NCBI GenBank assembly: GCA_001662655.1
Contig: KV460220.1
Length of the DNA stretch: 64,000 nucleotides
From: Pseudogymnoascus verrucosus
Lineage: Eukaryota
Direction: 5' to 3' (one strand)
Shown: positions 1 through 30,482 of the stretch, one piece after another
Position numbering within the stretch: the first letter of the stretch is position 1
How the letters are laid out: every line of letters begins with the position of its first letter
The notes under the pieces: model-generated
Databases searched by the model: none
Told to the model about the DNA's origin: nothing
What the model saw: only the letters and a program-made list of their open reading frames with translations
Translations under genes and position numbers: made by a program

Positions 1-1491
1 CAAGGCAGAACGGACTCTGTTTGCTAATTTGACTCCGCCTCTAGTAGCACATTAAAAATATCTGTGGCCTTGGCGACGCGAGATACCCTGTAGATAGTGA
101 GGTCATTAGGATCGCTATAGTTTGGTTTTGATACCCTTAATAACACAGCCACAGTAGCCAGTATTTGACTTCCAAGTCCAATAAGATTAAGTTAAAGTGT
201 GAAATTTAGCTGACGTTTTGTTACGCAGATCCTGCATAGCTAGAACCACAGCTAAATATCCTTGCTGCTCTTAAATTAGGCTGTTATTCGTATACGGGAC
301 GGGTAATGAGTTTACCTTTAATACGAGCATGCTTCAGGAACGCGGGCCTTTAATCCCATGGGTAGATCCATACAAATTATGAGGGGTAACGTCCCTACCC
401 CGCATTATTCATCTTTACTCATCTCTTCTATCAGATGGAAGTGAATATCGATCTTAAATACAATAATTCGCCGAGGCAACGAGGTGCCTGCACAAAAATA
501 AGTAACTTGTGTAAAGGTAGCTTAATAAAACAGCAGAAATGAATTCACAATACCAATTTCCGTGAACCATCTAAGATCTTCTCTATGGTTAACGTTACCA
601 GCTCGCTACCAACTCCCCTGAATGAGTGATATCCACAATAGTAAATTCAGAGGCCCCTATAGTCAAACAACGATATAGATATCAATAAACTATCACCATC
701 TATTGGCAAATTTTAAGCGCTGTGGGCTACTTTGGAAGGTCCTACCTCGGTCGTACTTTTCGCAATGCTAAGTCATACAGCCTAGAGCTTCCGTGGTGGC
801 GTCGACGGTGTTGGAAGCGGGACCCAAAGTAAGAGCTTAGAAACTGCCGCTAATCATTGCCGATGTACGATCTTAGGGTTCCGGAAAGTCTGACCGAGAG
901 CCTAATCTATGGACTCATTTATATCTTGTAGATCCTTGCTGCTATAGGCAAATACTCTTGACTCGAGATTTAGTTCGCGTATCAATAACCTTAATTCTAC
1001 TCCATCTGGTCACCCATCCCATGTCCACTGAAATATATTGAAATAAATCGCATATTACCTTCGGACGACAAATATGGATGATCTACGCCTACTCTGTATG
1101 GTACTTAGGGGCACGAGCAGAGTTTTGAGGATTATTCAGGAATTACTCAGGGAGGGGCCCGGTGGGGTAGCGACCACAGCTCGACTACTCCTCTGTTCTG
1201 AATTTGGGGGTTTGCTCCAACTACCTATTAGATAGGCATGTTTAGTTTATACCTACTTTAAATCTACTTTAAATGAAATGCCAAGCTGTCTTATAGATTA
1301 TGTACTTCAACTCTTCGAGTCATTTAGGCACATACTGTTGGATCAGTTGATGGGACTATTAGCGATGCCTTTTCGATTTTTGATAATTGTTTGAGTAGCA
1401 GTGTATATAATCATCCTAAATTCTCTAGAATATGAGCTCATTCATAAATCAAGCCGCATTTCAAGCCTTATTCTGATCCACGACACTCAAC

Positions 1492-2644
1492 ATGATATAC
1501 TCGGAGACTCTATTAGGTGCCTTGCTGCTGAGCTCGTTCATTCCTGCAGTACTTGGTCAGAGTTCTGTATGGGGCCAATGAAAGTCAACTCTCCCTAGGC
1601 GTACTAAACAAGGCTAATATTCTAATTTAGGTGGGGGTATGGGCTGGACTGGACCAAATACGTGTGTATCCGGAGCATGCTGCACCTTTTCTAATGACTG
1701 GTAGTAAGTTATGTCCTTGTTGCCTAGCTTTTATAGCCACAATCTCTAATATACGTCGGTGTAGCTCTCAATGCATCCCTGGCAACTGTCAGGGTGGTGG
1801 AGTAACAACTGCTTCTACAACTGTGGGAGTAACCACCACTGCTACTACTCAACCGGGCTCTACTGCTACCTCCAACCCCGGATCAGGCTCCGCGGGCTGC
1901 GGGAAGAACCCAGGACTTACCAGCGGCACCAAGTCAATCACTGTTAACGGCAAAACTCGCCAGTATATTATCAAAATCCCTGATAATTACCAGAGCAACA
2001 GGCCTTACAAGTTGATCTTCGGTCTTCACTGGCTCTCAGGGAGCATGAATGATGTTGTGAACGGCCAGTACTACGGCTTGCTACCATTGTCTAATAACGA
2101 TGTCATATTTGTTGCTCCGAATGGATTAAACAACGGATGGGCCAATTCTGGAGGTGAGGACGTCGCTTTTATTGATGCTTTGGTCAGCACCGTTGAGGCA
2201 GGACTCTGCGTAAATCCAAAGTTGCGCTTTGCCACTGGCTTCAGCTACGGCGGAGGGATGTCATACTCACTTGCCTGCTCCCGTGCAAACGTTTTCCGAG
2301 CCGTTGCAGTTATTGCTGGCGCCGAGATTAGCGGTTGCAGTGGTGGAACTTCTCCTGTCCCTTACTTGGGAATCCATGGAATTAGTGACAGCGTTCTTAA
2401 TATTAGTCAAGGCCGAAGCCTCCGTGACAAGTTCGTCTCCAACAATCGCTGCAACCCACAGAGCCCTCCTGAGCCCGCCAGAGGTAGTCGCTCGCATATC
2501 AAGACTGTGTATTCAGGGTGTACGTCAGGCTTTCCTGTGTGGTGGATTGCGCACGATGGAGACCATGTCCCTACACCACAGGATGGCAATGGACAATACT
2601 GGGCGCCAGGAGAAACATGGACCTTTTTTAGCCAGTTTTTCTAA
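1492..2644 (+). CDS. Secreted CBM1-containing carbohydrate esterase (CE1 / feruloyl esterase-like); first intron has a non-canonical donor, so possibly a pseudogene
   Basis: Signal peptide MIYSETLLGALLLSSFIPAVLG from ATG 1492; CBM1 (WGQCGGMGWTGPNTCVSG..C...NDWYSQC) rebuilt across introns 1580-1630 and 1704-1764; Thr/Ser linker; esterase motif GFSYGG. Confidence 0.8.
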
Positions 2645-2967
2645 ACAGGATCCTGAGATCTAACCGGGGAAATTTATTGGAATTTCTCAGTTCATTCTTG
2701 ATAGTCATTGGTTGCAAATAGTAGGAAGTCCAACTGTTAGGAATTCTTCAATATTAAGCGCTTAACCATAATGTCTTCGCAGTCGCACATATTGGTGTTG
2801 TATATGCCTATAGTAATGATTATTTCAAATTAGGAAAACCTTAGTGCTTCCTGCATGTACTCGTAACCTTTAAATGTGGAATTATTAGACGATTTGCAAG
2901 CTTGCAAAGCCCTGTTACCTTCAAAATTTAGTTCTTGCTAACCTTACCACACAACGCCTTCCCAAAA

Positions 2968-3735
2968 ATGGGCAACGACCTTGCCTCCTGTCCAACCTGG
3001 ACCCTTTCAGAAGCAACATCAGAATCATACGGCCACACAATTCGCGCCATGAAACTCTCTTCCTTCCCAAAATTCGGCTTTGTCATCTACCGCTGCACAT
3101 ACAGCGACGACGCAGCCTGGACCCAGCTCCTTTCACTTATACAGCGAGAAGCCCAAGAGGCCATCAAAGAATTAGGACCAGGGCGTGATTGGCTAGGCGC
3201 GCATCTAGAATGGACAATCGTCGAGGATCCGACGCTAGATGACGCTACCCAGGAGCAGGTGAAGAGGAAGTTTGATGGGTGGGCTGGTGGTGTTGTAGAG
3301 GAGTATGAGCGCACAAGCACGGATAATGTGAGGGGGTTACCGAGGTTTAATTTTTGTGTGTTTGTGGATGAGAAGTGTTTGGCCAGCTTGGAGAAACCAA
3401 AGGCGGTGGTGGATGGGAGGAAACCGCCTGTATTTGTAGTACTGGTGAGGGCTGAGAGGGGGATACTGGCTTGGGTGCTTCAGGCGCAGGCGGCGGCTTC
3501 TCAGCGCTCGCGGAGTGGCGTTGACTCTGAGGACGAGGAAGAAGAAATATTCGATGACGAAGATGAGGAGGAGGTTGAAGATGAGGATGATATACCTTTA
3601 GCGGCCCATAAGGCCAGCTGGATGTATGTAGAGACGCAGCATCTGCTCTCGCTTTACAATTCCTTGCATGCTGATTCAGGCTGGGAGCACCTCTACGTCC
3701 GGCCGCCAGGGGTTTATAGGAGGAATGAGGCCTGA
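2968..3735 (+). CDS. Hypothetical fungal protein (FGFVIYRCTY..D..W motif, acidic tract)
   Basis: Intronless ORF of about 255 aa; the GFVIYRCTY motif recurs in uncharacterised ascomycete proteins. Confidence 0.65.
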   Translation: MGNDLASCPTWTLSEATSESYGHTIRAMKLSSFPKFGFVIYRCTYSDDAAWTQLLSLIQREAQEAIKELGPGRDWLGAHLEWTIVEDPTLDDATQEQVKRKFDGWAGGVVEEYERTSTDNVRGLPRFNFCVFVDEKCLASLEKPKAVVDGRKPPVFVVLVRAERGILAWVLQAQAAASQRSRSGVDSEDEEEEIFDDEDEEEVEDEDDIPLAAHKASWMYVETQHLLSLYNSLHADSGWEHLYVRPPGVYRRNEA

Positions 3736-3759
3736 AGTCAATACAGACGCTGAGGGATG

Positions 3760-3791
3760 TTCAAACTCAAACCTATTGATTGGTATTTAGC
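3760..3791. repeat. 32-bp direct repeat R, copy 1 (5S spacer)
   Basis: ttcaaactcaaacctattgattggtatttagc; 2 mismatches to the copies at 8863-8894 and 30532-30563. Confidence 0.95.
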
Positions 3792-3830
3792 GGTGATACT
3801 TCAAAAAGGCAAAAAAAATAAAAGACAAAA

Positions 3831-3895
3831 ACATACAACAGTGGGTATTCGCTGGTGGTCACCCACCCAACTACTAATCTACCGATCTCAAGCTT
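3831..3895 (-). rRNA. 5S rRNA gene copy 1, 3' part (interrupted)
   Basis: Reverse complement reads AAGCTTGAGATCGGTAGATTAGTAGTTGGGTGGGTGACCACCAGCGAATACCCACTGTTGTATGT, followed by T-tracts (Pol III terminator); joins 8759-8812 to give a 119-nt 5S. Confidence 0.95.
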
Positions 3896-4100
3896 TTAGT
3901 AGATTAATACTCAGGACGGTGCCATTTGGACTAGTGGGTGAGCGTTGCCGCCTTTAAGATTTTAATGTCCTCGCAATGATCCGGTTGTCCCCCTTAGCTA
4001 CCTGATGGCGACCACGTCGACACGCACGAAGTGGGTCTTGTATTAAGGCGCGATGAACGCGATGCACCGCGACTTTGGATGGCCATGGATAATCCGGTAC

Positions 4101-4150
4101 CTAGGTGAGCGAAGGTGAGCGTGGGTGAGCAAGGGTGAGCGAGGGTGAGC
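4101..4150 (+). repeat. Five tandem 10-mers nnnGGTGAGC upstream of a TATAAAA
   Basis: ctaggtgagc gaaggtgagc gtgggtgagc aagggtgagc gagggtgagc; inverted copy gctcacccttgc at 8660-8671. Confidence 0.9.
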
Positions 4151-4819
4151 TTGAAAATGGTATAAAAGGCACGCTCCCGCCATGTCTAGATTTCCCTGTC
4201 TACCATCTACAACATACTTCATTCACTTTCAAGGACTTACCTAGTAATATGAGACGGAAAACCCTCATCTTCCACCACGCACAAGGAAGGTCTGGCCACT
4301 TTTAAGTTCTAGATTGCTAAAAAAAATATATTACACGTCCACGTAGTTGCGTGTTACTTGCGAGGTCTTCCTAACTTAAGGGAACATATCAGGGCGATAA
4401 TAGTTAAATATTATTTTTATAAAGTTTACAAATGAGAATTTAACGACGCTGTCAACTTTAAGTTGGGATGTATATATAGAAACGTTGTACATTTTCTAAG
4501 TTATAGCGCCGGCTAATCTAACTCTGTTAATACAGCTAACGAAAGAGACACATTAGTTCTTCCTCTGTTGCCTTGTTATGAGATGCTTGTCTCATTTCTG
4601 TTGCCTCATCTCCCGCCGTTTAGAAATACCACCTTTCGTCATCGATTTAGCTAAGGTTGAGGTGATTTGTAGTATGGTATAATATTCTCCTCTACCATAT
4701 TCCAAGTATTTACAAGAGAACAGAAATGTCAGAAATGAAACGAGATGGCGAGATCGTGGCAATAGTTAGACCGCTTGCCATCTCAAAGCAACTTATTCCA
4801 CCCACTACAGTCTCCTTGC

Positions 4820-6368
4820 TCATAGCAACACAGCAAACAGCGCAGCGAATCCAGCACCAAGACCAAAAATCGCCGACATAGGACCATTAGGCACAGCAGC
4901 TGCGGCGGAAAAAATAGGCACGCTGGTGGTCGTCGCGGAAGGGTTCGTGTTCGTCAACGTGGCGAGTGTGGTAGGCACAGCGGACGGTGGAGTTGTTGGC
5001 TCTGGAACGCCATCGGGGCAGTGCCAGTGGTCGCCGTGAGCAACACACTCGCCTGATGTAGTCTCACTTGCCGTGGCAGTAGGCGTAGATCCTGGTGGAG
5101 TAGAAGGCTCCAGCACGCCAGCTGGGCAGTCCCAGTGGTCACCATGAGCTATGCATTCGTCGCCGGTGAAAGGTGGTGTGGTTCCACCCGTTGCACCTCC
5201 TGGTGGTGTTGTTGGCTCGGGCACGCCGGCTGGACAGTCCCAGTGGTCACCATGAGCTATGCATTTGCCGCCGGTGACAGGTGGTGTGGTTCCACCTGGT
5301 GCATATCCTGGTGGTGGTGTTGGCTCGGGCACGCCGGCTGGGCAGTCCCAGTGGTCGCCATGAGATACGCATTCACCGCCAGTGACAGGTGGCGTAGTTC
5401 CACCTCCTGGTAGCGTTGTTGGCTCCGGAACGCCAGCTGGGCAGTCCCAGTGGTTACCATGAGCTACACATTCGCCTTCAGATATTGGTGCGGTGGTCGA
5501 GGTAGGTGACGATGTTGAGGTAATCGTTGGAGGTGGGGTGGTTGGTTCTGGCACGCCCTCTGGACAGTGCCAGTGGTCACCATGAGCTACGCATTCACCT
5601 TCAGATATCGGAGCTGTGGTTGAGGTAGTTGACGATGTCGAGGTAGGTGTTGGAGGTGGTGTTGTTGGTTCTGGAATGCCCGCTGGGCAATCCCAGTGGT
5701 CACCATGAGCCACGCATTCGCCTTCAGATATCGGAGCGGTGGTTGAGGTATCTGACGATATTGAGGTAGACGTTGGAGGTGGGGTGGTTGGCTCTGGCAC
5801 ACCAGCTGGGCAGTCCCAGTGGTCATCGTGAGCTACGCATGTTGGTGCAGCCGTTTCAGTGGGGTTGACGGAACTGCAATGCCCTGGGGATTGTTAGATA
5901 TCTGAAGATTCCTGATATAATGAAAAGATGCAGGGAAAGGAAGGCGGGTGTCTCACAATGGTCACCATGGAGTGTACAATCGCCAGCTGTTGGCGAGGGC
6001 GGAATAACCACAGTCGTAGTAGGGCAGGCTCCCGTGATCGTGTAGGTGTTGATGATGATCTTGTAACCGGCCGAGGTGAGTACGTGCGAATCCTCAAAGT
6101 TGTAGGCCGTGATAAGGCCGAGGCCGGGGAAGTTGAACGCGGTGGTGTGGACGGCGATCTGGGAACCCGTCTCGGATGCGGACCCTTGAACGCTGTTGAC
6201 AGAGGAGGCCCAGTTCTTGTAGTCGGTCACGGTGTGATCAATCCCGAGGCTCGTTACGGTCTTCGTGCACAGCTCGGAGGCGGCAGTGGTGATTCCTGCC
6301 TGGGGCTGTGGGAGGGCAAAGGCAAGCCTGACGAGCACGCTGCCTGCGAAAAAGTGCAGGAGATTCAT
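4820..6368 (-). CDS. Secreted, probably GPI-anchored protein with 9 C-x-x-H-G-D-H-W-[DH]-C repeats (putative metal/zinc binding)
   Basis: Signal peptide MNLLHFFAGSVLVRLAFA; GT-AG intron 5956-5884 joins the two ORFs in frame (about 491 aa); Pro/Thr linkers; hydrophobic C-terminal tail. Confidence 0.85.
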
Positions 6369-7283
6369 GGTCGGAATTGATGATGGTGATTGAGGGCTGG
6401 CCTCGACTGATCTTATCTGTCAAAACGAATGAGGATGGGTGCAGCCTTGATTAGGGTGCCGAGAGCTCTTTTTATATAACTTCGACAGAGCAGCCTCATA
6501 TTGCATAATTGGCTGGAGCGCCGGACGGTACTGAAGTTATCATATCACGTAACAACAAAGGCAACAACAATCTAGCCCTTAGCTATCACAACCTATCACC
6601 CATGTACCGTAGCATGGCGTCGGGAAAGAGAGGGTATGACAGGAAAATGGCGCAGAAAACGAGTTAGGAACCAGCTGGTATGCATAGTAATGTTCGGTTG
6701 GCCACTGTGTTAACGCGCCAAGTATTGGTTCTGGCCCTTTAAGGATTAAATATGACAGCTCCCTAAGAAATACTAAGACGCTAATCCCGCGAACAGGTGT
6801 TTGTTTTCGGTATCGCATGCGGAACATCTGGTAACTCCAGCCTACACAGTGCAGAAAAGGGTTTGTCCGCACGGGAAGCATATGGCTTCCTCGTGGGGGT
6901 TGTAACCCTCGTGGGTATGACACCCATGGGATTATCTCTTGGATTATCTTGGGAGACGGGAGAAGACGCTGAGTTAGTCGTGTCAAGGACGCTGTCATTT
7001 AATCCGCCGAACTAAGAACGAAACCTTGGGGGATCTGTAGATTACTAGGTGACTGAAAGAAAGAGGCAGATGGAGAGAGAAAGAGGGGTAAAGAAAGGAA
7101 GGCATCACGGCATGGTCATGTTCGTCTTACCTCACGCCTCTGCCTCACCTTCTATATAACTCCCCCCTCTGCCTCCCAAACAACAAGACAACCAACACTC
7201 ACATCCACATCCACACACTCCATCTTTCCAACTTCCCGAAGCTCACAACCACTCACCATCAAATCACCACCAAATAAATCAAC

Positions 7284-7523
7284 ATGAAGATCACAATCAC
7301 CTCCGTCCTCCTCTTCGCCGCGGCTGCCAGCGCCATCGTCGTCAAGCGCCAGTGCGAGCCGCCATCCAACACCGAATGCACCCTCGTCGTCGGCACCACC
7401 TGCGATTACTGCTGCTCTGCCCTCCCAACGGGAACTGACGCCTGCCACGCGCACGAGCCCTTCCAAAGCTGCGCAGACGGCCAGGGAATTATCTTCCACT
7501 GCGATGCGGTCCACAAGTTGTAG
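7284..7523 (+). CDS. Small secreted Cys/His-rich protein (79 aa)
   Basis: Signal peptide MKITITSVLLFAAAASA, KR processing site, 8 Cys, CHAH and FHC motifs; TATA near 7153 and CA-rich leader; C-ending codon bias. Confidence 0.75.
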   Translation: MKITITSVLLFAAAASAIVVKRQCEPPSNTECTLVVGTTCDYCCSALPTGTDACHAHEPFQSCADGQGIIFHCDAVHKL

Positions 7524-8751
7524 ACGGTCCTCGGGATGTCTCGCTTGCAAACAATGAATAAGGTGAGTTGGGAGCTGGGATGTTAGTATAGGCTGAGGAT
7601 GTTTACTGATTAGTGACTTTCCTTGAAGATTGCCAAGTGTGGATGAATTGCAGATGGGATGGGGTCGTCGACTGTTTGCTAACTTACATTCAACATGGAT
7701 CAGCGAGGATGTTTTAATACATGAAATGTTCTCCATTATGCTTGGTGTGCCTTTTTGTCTACGTATGTGCGGTAATGATCGTGCAGATTGTACTGGTGAT
7801 CATAATACCTTACAATAGTATTGACCAACTTGGCGGAATTGATGGTGGTAGTAGTAAAAGATTCAATTCCTGGGGCAAGAGGATGATGATGGTCGTCGTC
7901 CCTCGAACCCTCCAGGTATCCCGCCAAGCGGCCAAGCCACGCCCCTTTCCGCTCCGCCCCGCCCGCAACTTTGACAGATGGCTCAATTGGTAGTCGCGAC
8001 ATCGCAGCGTCACCTTGGGGGATATAACTGCCATTGACATGGGGTCATTCTATTACACACATGTTTGATTAGCGACACTCACTTTGCATTTCCTTTCTGT
8101 TTTTTCGTTTCCGTGCCTTGAATGTGTGCGGGGGGGGGGTTTAGCTCTTTCCACTGTTCTGGTCTCCTTATCCAGTCGATGCCATGGAGGTGGACTCTCA
8201 GACAGCTCTTCCCGGTCCTCGGTTGTGCGATTATGGAGCTGTTAGGTTCTCGTGAATTTTCGGTGTTTTCTTGTCTGGTCCGATTTCCAGGGAGTAGAGG
8301 AAGCGTCCGTGTTTTCCTTGTTTTCAATAGTATCCCAGTCATTGTAAGATCCAATATCGCCTTGGTTGGGTGAGGATATAGAAAGCCTGAGTGGTCTCTC
8401 GTATGGGGTACCTCTAGATCGCTAGGTGAGTGTATTTCTTATAGCACCCCTCTATTGCACGCTTGTTGTTTCTCTGCGTTGATTCTAGATCCGAAGTGTG
8501 AGCTGGAAACGCGTGAAGAATGCGGGGTTAGTGAGGGGTACAAGGAGATGATTTGAATCTGAAGAACGAGTTTGGATAAATCAATCACTCAACCATAGTC
8601 ACCAATCCAACTATACGTATCTACTCGGTACCATTTCCACAGACTATACTTGCCTTAATGCTCACCCTTGCTTCACCCCTTAAGGCGGCAAGGGGCTCAG
8701 ATTCCACGCTATGCCTACTGGCACGATTGAGAGCATCAATCCACTGAACTA

Positions 8752-8812
8752 CAAGCTTGTGTATGGCAGAGCGGACGGGATGCCCAATTCTCTTGAGTCT
8801 ATGGTCGTATGT
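8752..8812 (-). rRNA. 5S rRNA gene copy 1, 5' part (interrupted)
   Basis: Reverse complement ACATACGACCATAGACTCAAGAGAATTGGGCATCCCGTCCGCTCTGCCATACACAAGCTTG is the 5' half of a Pezizomycotina 5S. Confidence 0.95.
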
Positions 8813-8862
8813 GATAGTTACTCAGTTGGTAGACTATATGTGCCAGCATACGACTACTGACA

Positions 8863-8894
8863 TTCAAACTCAAAACTGTTGATTGGTATTTAGC
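8863..8894. repeat. 32-bp direct repeat R, copy 2
   Basis: ttcaaactcaaaactgttgattggtatttagc, identical to 30532-30563. Confidence 0.95.
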
Positions 8895-8929
8895 AATGAT
8901 ACTCCGAAAAGGCCAAAAAAATGGCAAAA

Positions 8930-8959
8930 ACATACAACAGTGGGTATTCGCTGGTGGTC
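8930..8959 (-). rRNA. 5S rRNA gene copy 2, last 30 nt (truncated fragment)
   Basis: acatacaacagtgggtattcgctggtggtc is identical to 3831-3860; preceded by A-tracts (terminator on the minus strand). Confidence 0.9.
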
Positions 8960-9130
8960 GCTCAGTAAATGTGAGCAACTAATAAAATGAAGATAAAATT
9001 CAACCGAGGTCGGGTTAACCTCCCATTAGGTATAAGATATGAGGAATGAAATTGTGAATATACGCATACTAGAACATCGTTAGCTATCTTACTATGTTAC
9101 CGGGAATATTTAAGGATGTCTTGAATTCCC

Positions 9131-10213
9131 TTATAAATCCGCCTTTGCCTGCTCTCCAGCCCATGCCCTCCTGATCAATTCCCTAATCCCCTCTTTCTCC
9201 ACCCTCCTCGGATTCCAGTACGGATTCGATACCGCAATATTAGCCGCCTTGTCCACGTCCTCCTCCTTCATGCCAAAGTTCTTTAAGCCACGTTCGACGT
9301 TCAGATTCCCTAGTAGCACGTTGAGACCCTTAATTGCATCCCCATCGCTCCCTGGTAAAACCCTAGCTAGCTTTTCCATAACCCCCGGAATCTCAGACGA
9401 GTTGTAAGCAAGTGCGTGTGGTAACACTATCGTGTGTGTTTCGGCATGCGGGAGATTGAACGAGCCACCAAGGGTATGGCACAATTTGTGGTGCAGGCTC
9501 ATTCCCACCGAACCTAGGCACAATCCGCACAACCACGCGCCGTATAACGCCTCCGTCCTCGCCTCCACGTCGTTCGGCATATTAACGATCTGCGGTAGCG
9601 CAGCGGCGAGCGCCTGGGTGCCTTCTAGCGCAAGTAGGGAGATAATCGGGTTCGTATTCTGCGCATACAGCGCCTCGACGGCGTGTGCAATTGCATTTAA
9701 ACCGCTTGTGGCTGACATGGACGGCGGCAGTGTCATGGTGAGGTCGACGTCGTAGATCACCGTGCCGGGAAGGATCTTGGGGTCACAGCGTGTCTTCTTC
9801 ACACCGTCAGCTGTCTCCCCTAAGATGGGGGTCATTTCAGAGCCGGCGTAGGTAGTAGGGATGCAGATGTGAGGGAGACCGGTGCGGATACTAAGGGCTT
9901 TGCCGAGACCGATCGTGCTGCCGCCGCCGATGGATATGATGCTATCGGCAGAAATGGATTTTGCGTATTCTAACGCCTTTTCCGTGATGTCGGTTGGCGT
10001 GTGCATGGTCGCCTCGGTGAAAATGCCCGCGATGTTACCGTTGAGGATCTTCTTCAAGGTCTCAGCCTGTGAGACTTGGTAGGGAGTAGAAAGGAGGAGA
10101 GGAGCTTTGAGGCATTGTCGTGAGATTTCAGAGGGGAGTTGTTGGATGGTGCCCTTGCCGAAGATTACGCGGGAGGGTGATGAGGCGTAGACGAAGTTCT
10201 TGGAGAGATCCAT
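9131..10213 (-). CDS. Maleylacetate reductase (iron-type alcohol dehydrogenase family)
   Basis: Intronless 360 aa; GGGSTIGLGKA, PTTYAGSEMT, NAIAHAVEALYA and HHKLCHTLGGSFNLPHAETH motifs. Confidence 0.92.
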   Translation of the reverse strand: MDLSKNFVYASSPSRVIFGKGTIQQLPSEISRQCLKAPLLLSTPYQVSQAETLKKILNGNIAGIFTEATMHTPTDITEKALEYAKSISADSIISIGGGSTIGLGKALSIRTGLPHICIPTTYAGSEMTPILGETADGVKKTRCDPKILPGTVIYDVDLTMTLPPSMSATSGLNAIAHAVEALYAQNTNPIISLLALEGTQALAAALPQIVNMPNDVEARTEALYGAWLCGLCLGSVGMSLHHKLCHTLGGSFNLPHAETHTIVLPHALAYNSSEIPGVMEKLARVLPGSDGDAIKGLNVLLGNLNVERGLKNFGMKEEDVDKAANIAVSNPYWNPRRVEKEGIRELIRRAWAGEQAKADL

Positions 10214-11600
10214 GGCTCTTGCGTAGGGATTTTTGCATTTATTAGTATGAGGGTTTGGTTAAAAGTTATAGCAATAGAGAGGGACACATTTGGTTATATG
10301 TCTACAACCTTGGCCCGGAGTTGATAGATAAAGTCATGGGGGATATATCATTATCCGGCTAGTGCAGAGGTTGACAGACGATTCCGGAACGCATCCCAAC
10401 TTCGGAAGAGCTATGTCGCAGCGGGGCGGAATGACCCACGAACATTAATTGACCCTACCATATTACAACACGATCTGGAACAACATGCAATTTCTAATGG
10501 AAGGAGAACTCAAAGCACCGCTAGTGCTATCGAGGCCTGATGCCTACGTATTCGAATACGCCACACCTGTGTCTACAATGCCTAATCCGAAAGGCTAAGT
10601 GACGAGAATATACATATTTACAAGATAGACTGAACAGCGAGAAAAGCAAAAAAGTTAAATCACCCTCTTCTAACTAGTTTACCCCCCTAACCACCTTTAA
10701 TTGTATTTAATACATAAGGAGAGACGCTATGGGCTATATATTAAACAAACCTTAATCCTAAAGAGAAGTAGGAGGGGTGAATTCTAAGACTAGATACTCT
10801 AGTTTAAGTTTTCTAATACGAGCGAGGGAATTGAACACGGAGTTTGTTGTAGACGTCTATGGTTGGACTGGAACGTCCGGTAGTAGATCTTGGGTCTGTC
10901 AATCTGAGTGGCTCGGAATTGTTGCTGGAGCAAAAGACGGCCACTAAGAAATGTATCGGCTTATTGGATCGCGGAGCTTCCACTTCCTAGCAGTCTGCTT
11001 ACGTAATCTCAACCCGTTAAATCCTTCCTACCATCACAATGCCAAACGCCGCGATATGTGCAAAACCTATATACTTAGAACAAACTGAGCATTCGTTGTA
11101 GCAACTCGGGTTACTTGTCTGTGTGCTTATTTATATACTCTTAGAGAATCGTCAAATATCGGCTTAATTGAAAATGAGATCCGTAATGAAACAGAGATAA
11201 TTTAGACAGTGGTTTACAATGCGGTTTTCAAAACGAATCTACAAACATATTTTATCGATTCACGGCATTAAAAGTGGTGCAACATCACTCTTAAGTGGCT
11301 ACCAATTTCAAATGATAAGTGAACCCAGCCGCGTGTGCCGTGCCCTACGGCTATGAACCCGCACGACAATGGAACCTGCCGTTTATATACTTCGCATGAC
11401 GCGTAGGATTTTACCTTTTCCAGGCACAGTCCTAGTTGAAGATCGTCTCTGGCCCAGCAAGCCTTATGTGATAGAGAGCGCTATTGATTACTGGATGCGG
11501 AACAGCCGGCCTCAATGAAATCTAGAACAGTAATTCCAATTTGCTCCCACTAACTCGCCTGAACTCAATTCTATGGCTTGCGCTAACCCGCTCAACCTGG

Positions 11601-11659
11601 GGTTGATTGCGGGGCCCCGCAACCAATCTAAGGGGGTGTTCATATATAAACACCCCCTT
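11601..11659. promoter_or_regulatory. Palindromic promoter elements upstream of the MFS gene (inverted CreA-type sites; TATA inside an 11-bp inverted repeat)
   Basis: ttgcggggccccgcaa perfect palindrome 11607-11622 (two GCGGGG = SYGGRG); aagggggtgtt-catatata-aacaccccctt 11630-11659. Confidence 0.5.
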
Positions 11660-11763
11660 GGTTTCGTCTAGAGAAGCGTGGCAAATCCTAATACTTAAAG
11701 GTACAGAGTCTCAAGAGTCGTGAGGATATCGAAAAATAAGCCCTTGCCAGAAATACCTCGAAT

Positions 11764-13777
11764 ATGATACGCAAGGTACAGGGTACTGAAGTCGGAATGG
11801 AAACACTGGATCAAAAGGTATGTCTGAATCCTGCAAGTCAGGGGTCCGGAATTGTGTTAGGTACTAATAAGTGCAGCAGACGGAAGATGCAGCGCATGTC
11901 GAAAAGATTGGAATTTCTCATGACAATACCTTGAAGAAGGCGTCTGATTGTATTACAATCTTGATACCTCAGCCATCTGATGATCCAGAAGACACGTTGA
12001 ACTGGAGTCAAGAAAAGAAATGGGTTATGTTGAGTGTCGTGGCGTACTGCGCGGTTATGCCTGATATGCAAGCTGCATTTGGAATACCACTTGTCCCTGC
12101 GCAAGCAATCGAGTGGGGCATCAGCATCGACGAGGCTGGACGCTCTGTATCAGGCTGTGTTTTTGTGAGTGACGATCGAGCATAAATTCTCGTTCACCGT
12201 CGTTATTAATCATTCTATGTGAAGATGATAGGAGCTGGCAGTCTCTTCTCAGTTCCGTTGGTCCAGCGCTTCGGGCGACTCCCAGTTCTATTCAGGTCGA
12301 TGTTCATATCTTTTTGGATGACAGTATTTGCTACACTTGCACCGAGTCCAATCAGTTTCATCGTGGCCCGTTGTCTTCAGACGACGTTCTCTGCCGCACC
12401 GCAAGTGATTGGTCTTTCCTTCATCTACGACTTGTGAGTCTCGAGCCTGCAATGTCACTGTTTAAATAGCCTACAGTTCCTAACCTTTCTTACTAGATTT
12501 TTTTTCCATGAGCATGCACGTGCTATTGGGATATGGGCCTGGGCCTTCGTCGAGTCGCCCTTCATTGGGCCATTGATCAGTAGCATTGTTGCCAACTTTC
12601 GACCTTGGCAAGACGCATTCTGGGTTTGCACCGCAATGACAGGGCTGGCATGTATCCTTGTGATAATGCTTGTTCATGAGACTCTATATGACCGAGATAT
12701 ATCTATTCAGTTACCCGAAAAGGCAGCTGGACCGCTCGTGCGAAGACTGGAAATGATTTCCGGTGCATACGGCGCCAGGGTCAAAGGGCGGCCATCATTA
12801 GCCAAGAGCTCTATGAGAATGCTGGTCATTGCTTCACGTCCTTACTTTTTCCTCATTCTTGGTGAGTGCGTATGGAACATATAAGTCCTATAGGCTAATT
12901 ACGCGATAGTCTTTTATGCAATGACTTTCATGTGGTCCGTTGGAGCGAATACAACCTTGGTATTATGCACTTATAGCCATACGATGTTCCTCTTGCTGAT
13001 CTGTGCCATTAGAGCCTCTTCCTTTTCAAGCCCGTCGCGGCTGGCGGTTACGGCTTTAGCCAACTGAGTGTCGGATTGATCTACTTTGCTCCCATCACGG
13101 CGACCTTTCTGGGTGAATTATTCGGACATTATTTCAGTGGGTTCTACAATAAATTGACTCTCGTATTAGTATTGACAGTTTGATAGATGATTTTCTCGCG
13201 CGCAGGTATATGCAGCGACACTCTGGCGTGTTTGAGCCAGAAGCTCGCCTCTGGGTAGTGTGGATTGCTACTCCATTTATGGTCGGCGGCCTCATATTAT
13301 TAGGCTTCTGTTTCGAGCTTCATTTTCATTGGGTAGCAATTGCCTTTGCCTGGGGCATCTATTGCTTTGGTACTGTATGTCTCGCAAACAAGAACAAGCC
13401 ACATTTGGTCAATACAGAAGACTAACATTCATCAGCTGATTTCGACGGTGGGTATTACAGCATATGCTTTAGACATCTTCAAAGACGAAGCAGCTGAAGC
13501 AGCGGCTTTGATCAACTTCTCGCGTACGATCTCAGGATTCATTGTAAACTATTTCCGTACGTTTCTATTTCCTCTGAACTTGCTAGAGAAGGTTAAATAA
13601 TACTAACAATGATCAGAGTTCGAGTGGGCAGCCAAAGTTGGACCAGCTGGAAGTTTTGGAACTCAAGGCGCTATCTGCTTTGTAGCCTGGGCGATAATAG
13701 TATTGGTCCAGTGGAAAGGTAAATCTTGGCGACAATCTTTCCTTCCATCGACTACACAACATGTACGAGAAATATAG
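11764..13777 (+). CDS. MFS transporter (DHA1/Hol1-like), multi-exon
   Basis: LIPQPSDDPEDTLNWS, FGRLPV, F..HEHAR..GIW and FEPEARLW motifs spread over several exons with GT-AG introns. Confidence 0.85.
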
Positions 13778-23305: not shown

Positions 23306-24196
23306 GTTAGTGGAGAGTGTCTCATGTCTGAGGAATCGTTGAGATTGCAGCTGCCTATTCCTTGTTAATTTTGTGGCTCTGAATGGGAGCGGTGGAAGTC
23401 ATGGCGTTGCTCTATGTGCGTTGATAACACGCCATACCTATCGAGCCTGTAGCCTAGAAAAGCATTATGGTTAGAAAAGCCGCGAATCTCAAACCTCAAC
23501 TATCATTTGTGTCACGAGTGAAGATGTTACCTGCTGCAACGAAACTTTGCCTCCTTGCCTTCAAATGTGCGCAGATTACAAAACACTCAGACATTTTGCC
23601 ATCACATGCCAAACCTGCAAATAGTTGCAATTTGTTACGCCTCGCTCATACCATGAGCATAGCTAAAGTACATTGCCACACCGAGCTTTCTTGAAGCAAC
23701 TACACAGAAGCACCAAGCAGCAATAAAGCAAATTGAGTGGCCCTCCTCACTTGCATACTTTCTATTTCTGCTGTTACTTTACTGAATTATCGAGAAGCTC
23801 TGGTGAACTGACCAGCCTTTTTCATGCTTGTCAATTGGTCACTGCCGTAAAGACGATAGAATGTCGAATCCAAGGGAGGCTCCAGACGTACTGCCTGGTG
23901 TACTATGGTAGAACCAGAAAGCTGGGCTGTGCCCGGCCGCCATACACAAGGACTTTTATGAATGTTCTTAGTCGAGACTCGCCCCACATGACTCCCGAAA
24001 ATCATATGGGGTAGGCGGGGATGACCCATGCTCCACATAGTTATCTAATCGTAGTCGTAAGCGGAGTGCGTCTGCGAGAATTGTTGAAGCGAAGTGCGTC
24101 TGCGACCACCAATTTTTGTAGGTACCTTTACATAATAAATTGTATAGAAAGGTACATAGATCAATTTATTTATTTGCGAAATTATCACTTTTACTC

Positions 24197-26234
24197 CTAC
24201 TCACACTCCCATTTCCCATCCTTCTCAAGCTCATATTGGAGCTCCCGCTCAAGCTGGCTCGTAGGCTCAAGCTCGAACTCAAATCCAGCTTCGAAGCTGG
24301 TTTCCGAGCCAGCTTCGAAGCCAATTTGGAAGCCAGCTTCGAAGCCGGTTTCCGAGCCAGCTTCGAAGCCAGTTTGGAAGCCAGCTTCGAAGCCGGTTTC
24401 CGAGCCAGTTTGGAAGCCAGTTTGGAAGCCAGCTTCGAAGCCGGCTTCCGAGCCAGTTTGGAAGCCAGTTTGGAAGCCAGCTTCTGGGTCGATAATTGGG
24501 TCCTGGTCTTCTGGAGGAATTGGGTGGCCAGCTCGAAGAAGAGCTTTTACCCTCTTTTTCCGGAGGCCCTCCTGTTTCCGGGCCTCAACCCCAGCCCTAT
24601 AAAGCTGCTTCCGGGCCTGGTTGGCAGCTAGCCGGGCTACTCTAGCTTCCTTCGCCTGGGCTTTCTGAGCTATAAGCTCAGCTTTGGCAGCCCGAAGCTT
24701 ATAAGCTCGCTCAGCAGTAAGCTCGCCTCCAATTTGAAGCCGGGCCCGGCTCCTACTCTTCCCTTTTTTCTGCTCCTGTTTCTGCTGCTGTAGAACCTGT
24801 AGATCAAGCTCCTGAAGCTGGCCTGAGGCCAACATCCGTTCAGTGCCAGTAGCCCAGTTGCCCCAGCTCTTCTGTGAGGGGCTGCTTAGAAGCCCTATAA
24901 GCTTTGAGTTCCACCGCTGTAGCCCCTGTTCTGAGTCCTTAAAAGTTGTAGGTTTAGGGGTTATTGGGTGTAGTAGTAGGGTAATTGGTGGTGTAATAGG
25001 CCTAGGAATAGGCTTTGAGTAGGTCCGAGTCCTTAAAAGTTGTAGGTTTAGGGGTTATTAGGTGTAGTAGTAGGGTAATTGGTGGTGTAATAGGCCTAGG
25101 AATAGGCTTTGAGTAGGTCCGAAGCTTCATAATAGCTGTATTACAGCTTATTGGCCAGATTCCTAATTTCTGGAAGGCGTGGGTTATAGTAGACTCCTTA
25201 AAAGTCTGCTCTCTTATATGTGGAATATCTCTCATAAATGAGGACAGATTGTATTGAAGGTCCATCTCTCGTATGGCCTTAAGCACAGCTTCCCTATGGT
25301 AGTGCTTATAAGGTTAGAATATCCCCACATCTAATGGCTGTAAAACGTGTGTAAGATGTAAGGGGAACGTATAAGTGATAATGTTGCTCTCTGCTGCTAT
25401 AATGATGAAATCATCACTTGTATGGCTAATATGTGAGTCGAGTATTAGGAGCTTTAGGACGTTATGTAGAGCTGTATGCTCTATAAAGTGCTGTAGCCAC
25501 TATAGTGTAAGGTGAGAATTAGAAAATCCAGTGTCTGATAGTAGGATGAGCTCTGTGCCGAGTAGATTTAGGTGGTACCATGAGTCCATATGTATTTTAC
25601 CCGGTAGAATAAGTACTGGTGGAATAGTCCCTCCTACTGTAGACACAGTTTCTACAATAGTAATAGACTGTCGATTTTCAGGGCTTAGAGTATAGAGCTG
25701 TTTAGCTATTCGTGGCACAATAACCTTCTCTCCTCCTGGAATTCCAATTCTAAAGCCAGTTTCATCTATATTCCAAATTGACTCTGGCTTTATATAGTGC
25801 TGTAGTATAAACTCATAGTATTTCTCAAACCACTCTTGAATAGTACTCTCATCTTGAGCTTTAACACGCTGTTGAGCAATTGGCTTAGTTGTAATAATAT
25901 GGAAATCTCGAAGCTCATTCTTAATGAGCTTACTAAGCCAGCTTCGTGAGGGTGGTGGTAGTGGCTTCCGTAGGTGGCATATAGCTGCAAAGGTCATTTG
26001 CCGGGTAGCTCCTAGGCCTAGCTCATATTGCTGTATAATCCACTGCTTTAGAGCTTCTATTTGAGCTGTAGTGAGCAGCCTATTCTGACCACCTTGGCGG
26101 GGCTTGTGGAGTCGTTGGATGCTTGACTGTAGAGTGGTTCGTGGAATGTGGAAAATCCTAGAAGCAGCAGCTACAGACTCAGTCGGATTGTCTGCTAGCC
26201 ACTGACGGGCATTTAATAGAGGAGTCCCTTCCAT
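24197..26234 (-). pseudogene. DDE_1 (pogo/Fot1) transposase pseudogene
   Basis: In-frame stops (e.g. TAG at about 25500 in L-*-W-L-Q-H-F) and a 94-bp tandem duplication (24933-25122) that shifts the frame. Confidence 0.88.
24283..24485. repeat. 12-bp minisatellite in the transposase 3' end (GFEA/GFQT/GSET codons)
   Basis: Repeated agccagcttcga / agccagtttgga / agccggtttccg units. Confidence 0.9.
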
Positions 26235-27123
26235 TAAATTGTTTTCATTGAGTTACTATGTAAATTACTATGTAGAGGAATGTTGTAGGTTTTGGTGAGG
26301 GGTAGCGGTGAACTGGCGCCAGTACAAACTGAGCGATCTCGCAGACGCACTTCGCTTCAACAATTCTCGCAGACGCACTCCGCTTACGACTACGATTACT
26401 AGTAACGAATTTTGTGGTGGTTTGACGCAGTTCGCTTCCGCTCACAGTTAGGTCGTGTTCCGGAATGATTCCGGCCACAGAATTTACCGCAGGCACATCC
26501 CACACGCGATGACGGCTCTACACTAAAGAAAGCGTTCTGCAGAATGGAAATGTGTTTAAGCATGTATTCCGTGTGAGACGCAAAGTTACCGAAGAGAGTC
26601 AACACAAATCTAACAGATGTTCTTTTTACCGTAGAAGTGAAAAAGGCTCTAGACACTTGCCTAAAACGATAGTATTGTATCACTCAAACGGTTGGCAAAT
26701 GATTAGGATAGCACGCAAATAGCACATCGTAATAATAAGAAAAGCCAAAAAAAAAACTTAGCTTGATAGTCCATTCATTCTTTGTCCGCGAACCTCCGCT
26801 CACCTGCAACGAGACATGTGGAATTGTGCATCCGATGTCATGCTTCGCACCTCATACTCTACTTTAGTTAGTAGGTAATGGTGGGAAAAACCGCCACTTT
26901 CGCTAAATCAATACGGCCTACCCCACCCATTTTCTACGGGGTCGGTCCCCGCCTTTCTCGCCCTGTCTTTCTTCATGCACTTCCCTTAACATCATAAAGT
27001 TAGCTCCTGTCTAGAGTCATCCTCGCGTGATACTCTACAGGCAAACTCTAATCAGTAAATCATTCTGCCCTCTTTGTTCAGAAATCTTCACCAAAATATT
27101 CGCTGGCAGACGGAGCACCCGCG

Positions 27124-30421: not shown

Positions 30422-30482
30422 CAAGCTTGTGTATGGCAGAGCGGACGGGATGCCCAATTCTCTTGAGTCTATGGTCGTATGT
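30422..30482 (-). rRNA. 5S rRNA gene copy 2, 5' part (interrupted)
   Basis: Identical to 8752-8812; ends at CAAGCTT. Confidence 0.95.

Follow-up and report, generated by a model that had tools for sequence, protein, structure and literature searches.

A captainless 4.9-kb insertion in a 5S rRNA gene of Pseudogymnoascus verrucosus, probably an internal-deletion derivative of a 5S-targeting Starship family

The stretch of Pseudogymnoascus verrucosus DNA analysed here (the window; 64,000 nucleotides of contig KV460220.1, assembly GCA_001662655.1) corresponds to C15:248001-312000 of the 30.2-Mb assembly, which has 151 contigs, and carries at positions 3889-8758 an insertion of 4,870 bp, insert A, that splits a minus-strand 5S rRNA gene. 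The gene halves on its two sides (Table 1) have 98-100% identity to uninterrupted copies elsewhere in the assembly, and two of these copies reach 74.2 bits with the Rfam model RF00001, whose gathering score is 38. The halves themselves go unreported when the window is scanned with Rfam, because the gene is split. The heptamer CAAGCTT, which occurs once per intact 5S gene, bounds the insert on both sides, and two open genes lie between the repeats; both features had been given in a preliminary description made from the sequence alone. Insert A is probably a resident derivative of a 5S-targeting Starship family, most likely Enterprise, that lost by internal deletion its captain, the DUF3435 recombinase gene.

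The terminal inverted repeats (TIRs) of insert A, 3896-3958 and the reverse complement of 8679-8747, align with a score of 51.5, which is reached by none of 2000 dinucleotide shuffles (mean 24.2, maximum 48.5) and by none of 3000 random window pairs (maximum 44.5). The exact 10-bp match between the arms (3945-3954 and 8682-8691) is present as first described, and so are the first 16 nt of the alignment, where all four differences are transitions. The subterminal repeats of the preliminary description hold for the left end, with five GGTGAGC motifs at 10-nt spacing and one more inside the TIR; the right end has a single exact inverted copy, and a longer right end elsewhere in the family has three.

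Over 378 nt, the left end has 88.7% identity to a left end on contig C52 that runs into a DUF3435 gene, and this homology takes in the TIR, the subterminal repeats and a TATA-like box and ends after the sixth codon of the captain. A tblastn search of insert A with a related captain gives zero matches, and the six-codon stub is all that is left of the gene, so the preliminary claim that no recombinase is present is borne out. As the left end is shared with captain genes, is cut at codon six and is followed by two open genes, the structure points to an internal-deletion derivative. Target-matching direct repeats, imperfect TIRs and variable coding cargo between shared ends are Starship characters that insert A has, while a DUF3435 first gene and a size of tens to hundreds of kb are characters that it lacks; the DUF3435 gene does come first in the relatives on C52, C25 and C27, which share its left end. 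Insert A is thus a Starship derivative and not a strict member, having no captain.

The cognate captains are themselves damaged. Of two exons of the C52 captain, one has 4 stops within 220 codons and the other 2 within 117, the captains of C25 and C27 have further stops and low GC, and all are AT-rich, with TpA/ApT ratios of 1.20-1.45 versus 0.65 for the larger gene of insert A; none of the 19 DUF3435 matches found in the assembly, a lower bound, is an intact cognate captain. One captain exon of C52 has 98% identity over half its length to KFY77759.1, and a C52 exon has 59% to KFY08696.1, which has the HxxR motif of clade 2, where the broken captains of the assembly read HxxC, YxxC or YxxR. 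The gene span of KFY08696.1, about 1,960-1,990 nt, best fits row psesp.8_3243 of the starfish study, where it is listed as fam06 together with the Enterprise captain (PMC11162782), and the parent family of insert A is probably Enterprise (family 6). A candidate full-size parent lies at C52:107495-219635, between the captain-bearing left end and a right end that lies 112 kb off, where the contig stops. Captain-like genes of more distant relationship, most of them riddled with stops, are found in the L073, L072 and L077 regions and on C44, C26, C20, C61, C46, C18 and C15:400032; in the matches at C46 and C61:5060 no stops were seen.

The ends of insert A belong to a large family. Its left 312 nt have 30 matches in the assembly, and its right end, in the best 40 of 60 candidate matches, is matched within its last 100 nt only. 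Exact patterns, which are independent of element sequence, find at least 25 3' halves and at least 46 5' halves of 5S genes split at the same site, and a reversed control pattern finds none; left-end motifs are present at 24 of the 25 left junctions and right-end motifs at 24 of the 30 right junctions examined, out of 46. The ends are therefore multi-copy and exceed all shuffles, which is the opposite of the single-copy ends and shuffle-level similarity that had been named as a refutation, and the 5S targeting with Starship-type ends is upheld by a whole family inserted at the same base. By sequence, the TIR tips fall into three types, and left and right tips co-vary: 8 of 10 pairs are matched (permutation p 0.004, with nearest partners chosen by hand and not blind); insert A is a matched type-1 pair, and C57, one of the mismatched pairs, was later accounted for by a nearer boundary. 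Left ends are truncated at 34 to 678 nt, some right ends of sister units are cut inside the TIR, and right junctions outnumber left ones (46 versus 25), an excess that fits deletions centred on the captain.

Some ends of the family are joined to each other. A right end, the CAAGC core and a left end follow one another without 5S sequence at 7 of 51 right ends by script, with L044 added by eye, and again in the metagenome locus L187:6912-7117, which suggests, from the junction sequences, that family members integrated into one another's ends through a joined-end intermediate. Arrays are also present, in which one left end is followed by several successive units of right end and 5S 5' half, each after different cargo (C13:434186-445897, C49:51037-61663 and C5:163438-201839).

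From the 25 left junctions, eleven units of 3.1-9.0 kb that have a near right boundary were compared in full. Nine have no captain match, two have short 5' captain stubs, and the eleven have no cargo in common; comparing 50 right-inner and 30 left-inner segments all against all likewise gives no shared cargo, its matches being captain remnants and two short ones (190-270 nt) between different loci. The small units have long open frames, with no signature of repeat-induced point mutation (RIP) in those measured, and together with two neighbours they match, among others, the Pfam models of SDR, MFS transporter, NACHT-ankyrin, AAA/NLR-like, C2H2 fingers, AnmK, HET and ZIP transporter proteins. 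The same ends thus flank different cargo, and they flank captain-bearing elements at other 5S loci (C52, C25, C27), the two outcomes that had been proposed as support for the preliminary description. The 9.0-kb unit C2:379298-388317 (L204) has its interior inverted between the TIRs, with a reversed captain stub at the right, and carries an MFS transporter, an AnmK kinase and a Zn-cluster-like regulator. A larger captainless unit of 14.4 kb, C8:403154-417558 (L214, L215), has open reading frames (ORFs) that by eye resemble a GH18 chitinase and its usual neighbours, and shares a 92-bp piece with insert A.

MITEs (miniature inverted-repeat transposable elements) are short (under about 1 kb), non-coding, high-copy and homogeneous, are bounded by TIRs and derive from an autonomous family. 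Insert A resembles them in being small, non-autonomous, TIR-bounded and derived from an autonomous family, and differs in being 4.9 kb long, coding and single-copy. A single-copy cargo, and eleven small units with none in common, show that it is not a MITE; there is no amplification, and no sign of movement as a 4.9-kb unit. The MITE-like label of the preliminary description, in the sense of an amplified homogeneous unit, accordingly has to be given up.

The interior of insert A is single-copy in the assembly apart from the 92-bp piece, which recurs inside the C8 unit and, with 44 bp of its length, in the C52 region. Cargo gene 1 encodes a protein with hydrophobic N- and C-termini and nine C-x2-H-x2-H-W-x-C histidine-triad repeats, which is predicted to be GPI (glycosylphosphatidylinositol)-anchored and to have a signal peptide, both signals being judged by eye. 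It has 42 relatives, nearly all fungal hypothetical proteins, of which 41 carry PF28209 and/or PF28210; PF28209 is named His-triad hairpin (name match score 0.82, a lead). No relative was found in PDB, and the repeat motif was not found in the literature searched. The ortholog OBT59738.1 has 96% identity in exon 1 and a different number of repeats (379 versus 491 aa in cargo gene 1), and internal repeats of 99-123 nt without RIP signature occupy 4986-5840 of the window. The Pht proteins of pneumococci use HxxHxH motifs to bind zinc on the cell surface and are similar in having several HxxHxH/HxxHxD-type motifs on a predicted surface protein (PMC9175090), whereas cargo gene 1 belongs to fungal PF28209/PF28210 and its repeats are flanked by cysteines; by this analogy its product is most likely a metal (zinc)-binding protein of the cell surface and would be a wall-anchored metal scavenger. 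Cargo gene 2 encodes an orphan small protein with a hydrophobic N-terminus and eight cysteines, most likely a secreted peptide. No homologue was found at 43-139 aa, Atlas matches are all below 0.8, and a single-sequence structure model has a predicted local distance difference test (pLDDT) value of 48. The cargo of insert A is absent from all 15 metagenome loci that carry the right end.

At all three matches of a junction pattern (C6, C17 and C22), a right end passes straight into a 5S terminator with an intact 5S gene. The three loci share right end, junction and gene with 86-92% identity over 265-337 nt and are unrelated past the 5S start; C17 encloses an NLR-like gene, its left side being a split 3' half with a left end at a distance of 5.3 kb. 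The simplest reading of these junctions is a lineage in which the right end carries the 3' half of the 5S gene, so that integration would rebuild the gene; the alternative is a deletion within tandem 5S pairs. According to the starfish paper, all of its 5S sites would likely disrupt the gene, and its Table S1 has Aspergillus elements with a 15-bp repeat (PMC11162782), which in our own reading is the 5S 3' end. A second, different junction, at which CAAGC links the remnant of a right end to a 5S terminator, is common to C25:6306-6440 (L094, L203) and C57:43856-44030 (L091), and on C25 the 5S gene after the remnant is split again by a captain-bearing element.

Four sequencing runs were compared over window positions 1000-13000. 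Divergence from the assembly is 7/2,852 (0.25%) in the left flank and 14/3,388 (0.4%) in the cargo for relative X2, 42/2,810 (1.5%) and 42/2,439 (1.7%) for X3, and 51/2,880 (1.8%) and 46/2,432 (1.9%) for X4; as the cargo diverges about as much as the flank in all three, insert A looks resident, which fits vertical inheritance at one site. The assembly has no second copy or second locus of insert A. Joints that skip insert A in these runs come from other 5S copies. Neither the run X6, where the left flank is covered and the interior of insert A is missing, nor the lack of 9020-13000 in X3 and X4 was used as evidence, no contig joining these holes.

RIP mutates duplicated Starship DNA, and captains excise and integrate Starships without footprint and act in trans (PMC10104507). 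The left end of insert A shows 10 C>T/G>A versus 14 reverse changes and has no RIP skew, so RIP damage as the source of its TIR transitions is not supported for the left end overall, against a reference majority that is itself RIP-biased. C13a is also unskewed, and C25, C1b, C57 and C6 are skewed. It is hypothesised that short ends escape RIP, which fits this contrast, but C52, having a full captain and yet an unskewed left end, does not agree with it.

The proposed origin of insert A has three steps. A full-size DUF3435 element would have integrated at the CAAGCTT core by conservative recombination, as known Starship biology suggests, and split the 5S gene. An internal deletion, which the anatomy displays, then removed the captain from codon 7 on and all the rest, sparing two genes and, of the right end, about 100 nt. 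Single-copy and probably useful cargo would finally have kept the remnant in place as a resident locus, while the multi-copy captains would be destroyed by RIP-type mutation. At other 5S genes, the same process would have given the many units of 3-9 kb, whose cargo is unrelated. The earlier statement that the element kept only its cis-acting ends fits this anatomy; selection for the ends is not borne out, the sister ends being cut variously and some inside the TIR. Having matched TIRs and both direct repeats, insert A may still be open to the action of a captain provided in trans.

Several points weigh against this origin. No contig of the four runs bridges flank and cargo, so the same-locus reading comes from single-copy cover and equal divergence, and the same runs hold no empty site and no contig bridging the site. 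Unskewed ends and two whole TIRs are not required of a purely dead relic, and the TIR pairing was the hand-made one described above. A full-size parent with the cargo of insert A was not found, the 92-bp piece being the sole interior link to larger members, and the Enterprise assignment is indirect, through HxxR in a named relative and a span match.

That insert A is instead a live or recently live non-autonomous mini-Starship, moved in trans by a captain as a 4.9-kb unit, is unlikely, although its TIRs and repeats are intact and type-matched and a captain did complement a captain-frameshifted mini element in trans (PMC10104507). Starships move by cut-and-paste and seldom duplicate (PMC12256816), so a cargo present once is compatible with movement, and right-end/CAAGC/left-end junctions without 5S are expected if circles integrate into existing ends. 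Against it, no cargo is found at two loci, cargo and flank are equally diverged in three relatives, the 19 DUF3435 matches found, a lower bound, include no intact cognate captain, and both the many lengths at which sister ends are cut and the junction excess look like unselected deletion around the captain. A wider and tentative proposal, possible though rather doubtful, is that the 5S genes of the genus form a dispersed cassette system of captainless mini-Starships of 3-9 kb, insert A included, which would be moved in trans by visiting captains and would have one or two intact genes, matched short ends that escape RIP, end-to-end stacking at existing junctions and, in at least one lineage, a 5S terminator and 3' half through which integration rebuilds the 5S gene. 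Far less probable is a composite, in which the ends of two insertions in neighbouring 5S genes were joined by deletion and trapped two host genes: 5S genes are in tandem here, C13 and C49 have arrays in which several right ends accompany a single left end, and cargo gene 1, which has no other copy in the assembly and has relatives in many ascomycetes, looks like a native gene, yet the ends are type-matched, no 5S remnant lies between them and an interior piece recurs inside two other family members. Chance repeats around an ordinary gene pair between 5S pseudogene fragments would agree with CAAGCTT alone occurring 11 times in the window; this explanation is already refuted by the shuffle controls, the dozens of end copies at the same 5S base and the continuity with captain genes, and can be set aside. 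The resident internal-deletion derivative is the probable reading.

Known systems resemble insert A in part. In Osiris of Aspergillus fumigatus and the other 5S Enterprise Starships (family 6, clade 2), insertion fragments the 5S gene with a direct repeat of more than 6 bp, orientation is fixed in most copies, and the captain is the first gene, as it is in the full-length relatives of insert A (PMC11162782, PMC12153272); Osiris haplotypes average 38-138 kb versus the captainless 4.9 kb here (PMC12153272). The smallest element of the starfish set has 15,020 bp, which agrees with the preliminary remark that an element under 5 kb is far below the usual size, and published 5S insertion sites of Starships number five (PMC11162782). 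Voyager of Macrophomina phaseolina is likewise always in 5S genes and has a target-site duplication or direct repeat and TIRs, but inserts 20 bp from the 5S start versus near 55-61 for insert A, measures 74-124 kb and has a captain, of family 10 (PMC9156397). In derelict Starships, too, the captain is lost or RIP-mutated and the cargo persists and is vertically inherited (PMC9156397; life-cycle stages 4-5, PMC11623301); these are recognised by their cargo and have often lost their ends (PMC9156397), whereas insert A still has its TIRs, direct repeats and split target and is one of at least 11 small units. The engineered miniHephaestus, consisting of ends and one cargo gene, is similar in design and was mobilised in trans by a captain after a frameshift in its own, but is artificial, targets TTAC and has flanks of 3,820 and 1,902 bp versus 378 and about 100 bp in insert A (PMC10104507). 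The literature compared also includes PMC12506042, PMC13004909 and PMC12289983.

5S targeting, derelicts and smaller haplotypes are already known. Natural captainless 5S Starships below 10 kb were not found as a class in the literature searched, outside which most subscription papers lie, and no description was found there of the abundance of minis, three co-varying end types, end-to-end junctions or right ends that seem to rebuild 5S. Starship surveys begin with captain genes or with regions over 30 kb (PMC11162782, PMC12256816), so small captainless units escape them. In this genome 46 or more 5S genes are split at a single site, and the small units compared in full carry ORFs for transporters, enzymes, immune-type receptors and secreted proteins, so that 5S loci are a large, hidden store of genes delivered by Starships; natural ends of three co-varying types and many lengths provide a map of the cis sequences that a captain needs. 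The interest lies mostly in this genome-wide set and the 5S-rebuilding ends, and less in insert A alone. If minis move in trans or rebuild 5S, Starships would be closer to bacterial integrative and conjugative or mobilizable elements (ICE/IME) than described, and the rebuilding, if the cassette proposal is true, resembles bacterial tRNA-targeting islands; if they do not move, insert A is an ordinary end stage of the known life cycle.

Table 1. Features of insert A, its surroundings and related junctions (window positions unless a contig or locus is named).
Feature	Position	Strand	Remarks
5S gene 3' half, including left direct repeat	3832..3895	-	98% to uninterrupted copies, which are RF00001
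Left direct repeat CAAGCTT, putative crossover core	3889..3895	+	same site in 25 split 3' halves
Left imperfect TIR, end type 1	3896..3958	+	alignment and shuffle controls
Five GGTGAGC repeats, 10-nt period; putative accessory recombinase-binding sites	4104..4150	+	
TATA-like box, putative former captain promoter	4161..4167	+	kept in 7 aligned left ends
Captain stub: start codon and five codons, then left deletion breakpoint	4249..4266	+	C52 homology stops at nt 378
92-bp non-coding piece	4607..4698	+	in C8 unit (89%) and C52 region (93% over 44 bp)
Cargo gene 1, 491 aa	4820..6368	-	one predicted intron, 5884-5956
Cargo gene 2, 79 aa	7284..7523	+	orphan small protein, 8 cysteines, hydrophobic N-terminus
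Right end, about 100 nt kept, type 1	8659..8751	+	GGTGAGC 8660-8666 and TIR arm 8679-8747
Right direct repeat CAAGCTT	8752..8758	+	
5S gene 5' half	8752..8812	-	100% to uninterrupted copies
Context: downstream flank and truncated 3' end (8931-8959) of neighbouring tandem 5S gene	8863..8959	-	
Context: further split 5S 5' half	30422..30482	-	no recognisable right end before it
Right end with intact 5S gene	C6:549846-550016 (L210); C17:224820-225005 (L205, L211); C22:445210-445389 (L212)		
Right end, CAAGC core and left end, no 5S	L007, L008, L009, L044, L060, L120, L121, L122		

To the right of insert A, 21.5 kb (8960-30428) lie between the truncated 5S 3' end and the further split 5' half, with no recognisable ends, and hold a gene of the Fe-ADH family, further ORFs that look catabolic and, at 24-26 kb, ORFs resembling those of transposons; this region is probably an older relic of the same Starship family. 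The Fe-ADH gene (within 9119-10641) is found with 82% identity in the metagenome locus L193:3000-7103 of a relative, after a right end and 5S 5' half; the cargo upstream differs there, and downstream lies a DPH2-like gene. About 200 bp resembling the start of the DPH2-like gene, of which a full copy is on C11, are left in the window; the gene to the right of insert A is a candidate for capture from beside a DPH2-like gene, with a similarity of 72% over 74 bp only. Rfam miRNA-type matches near 24.3 kb are below gathering scores. A separate DNA transposon has perfect inverted repeats of 60 bp (24046-24105 and 26339-26398), which lie 2.3 kb apart around a transposase-like ORF (25503-26252), and palindromic and tandem repeats occupy positions 24282-25122 within this region.

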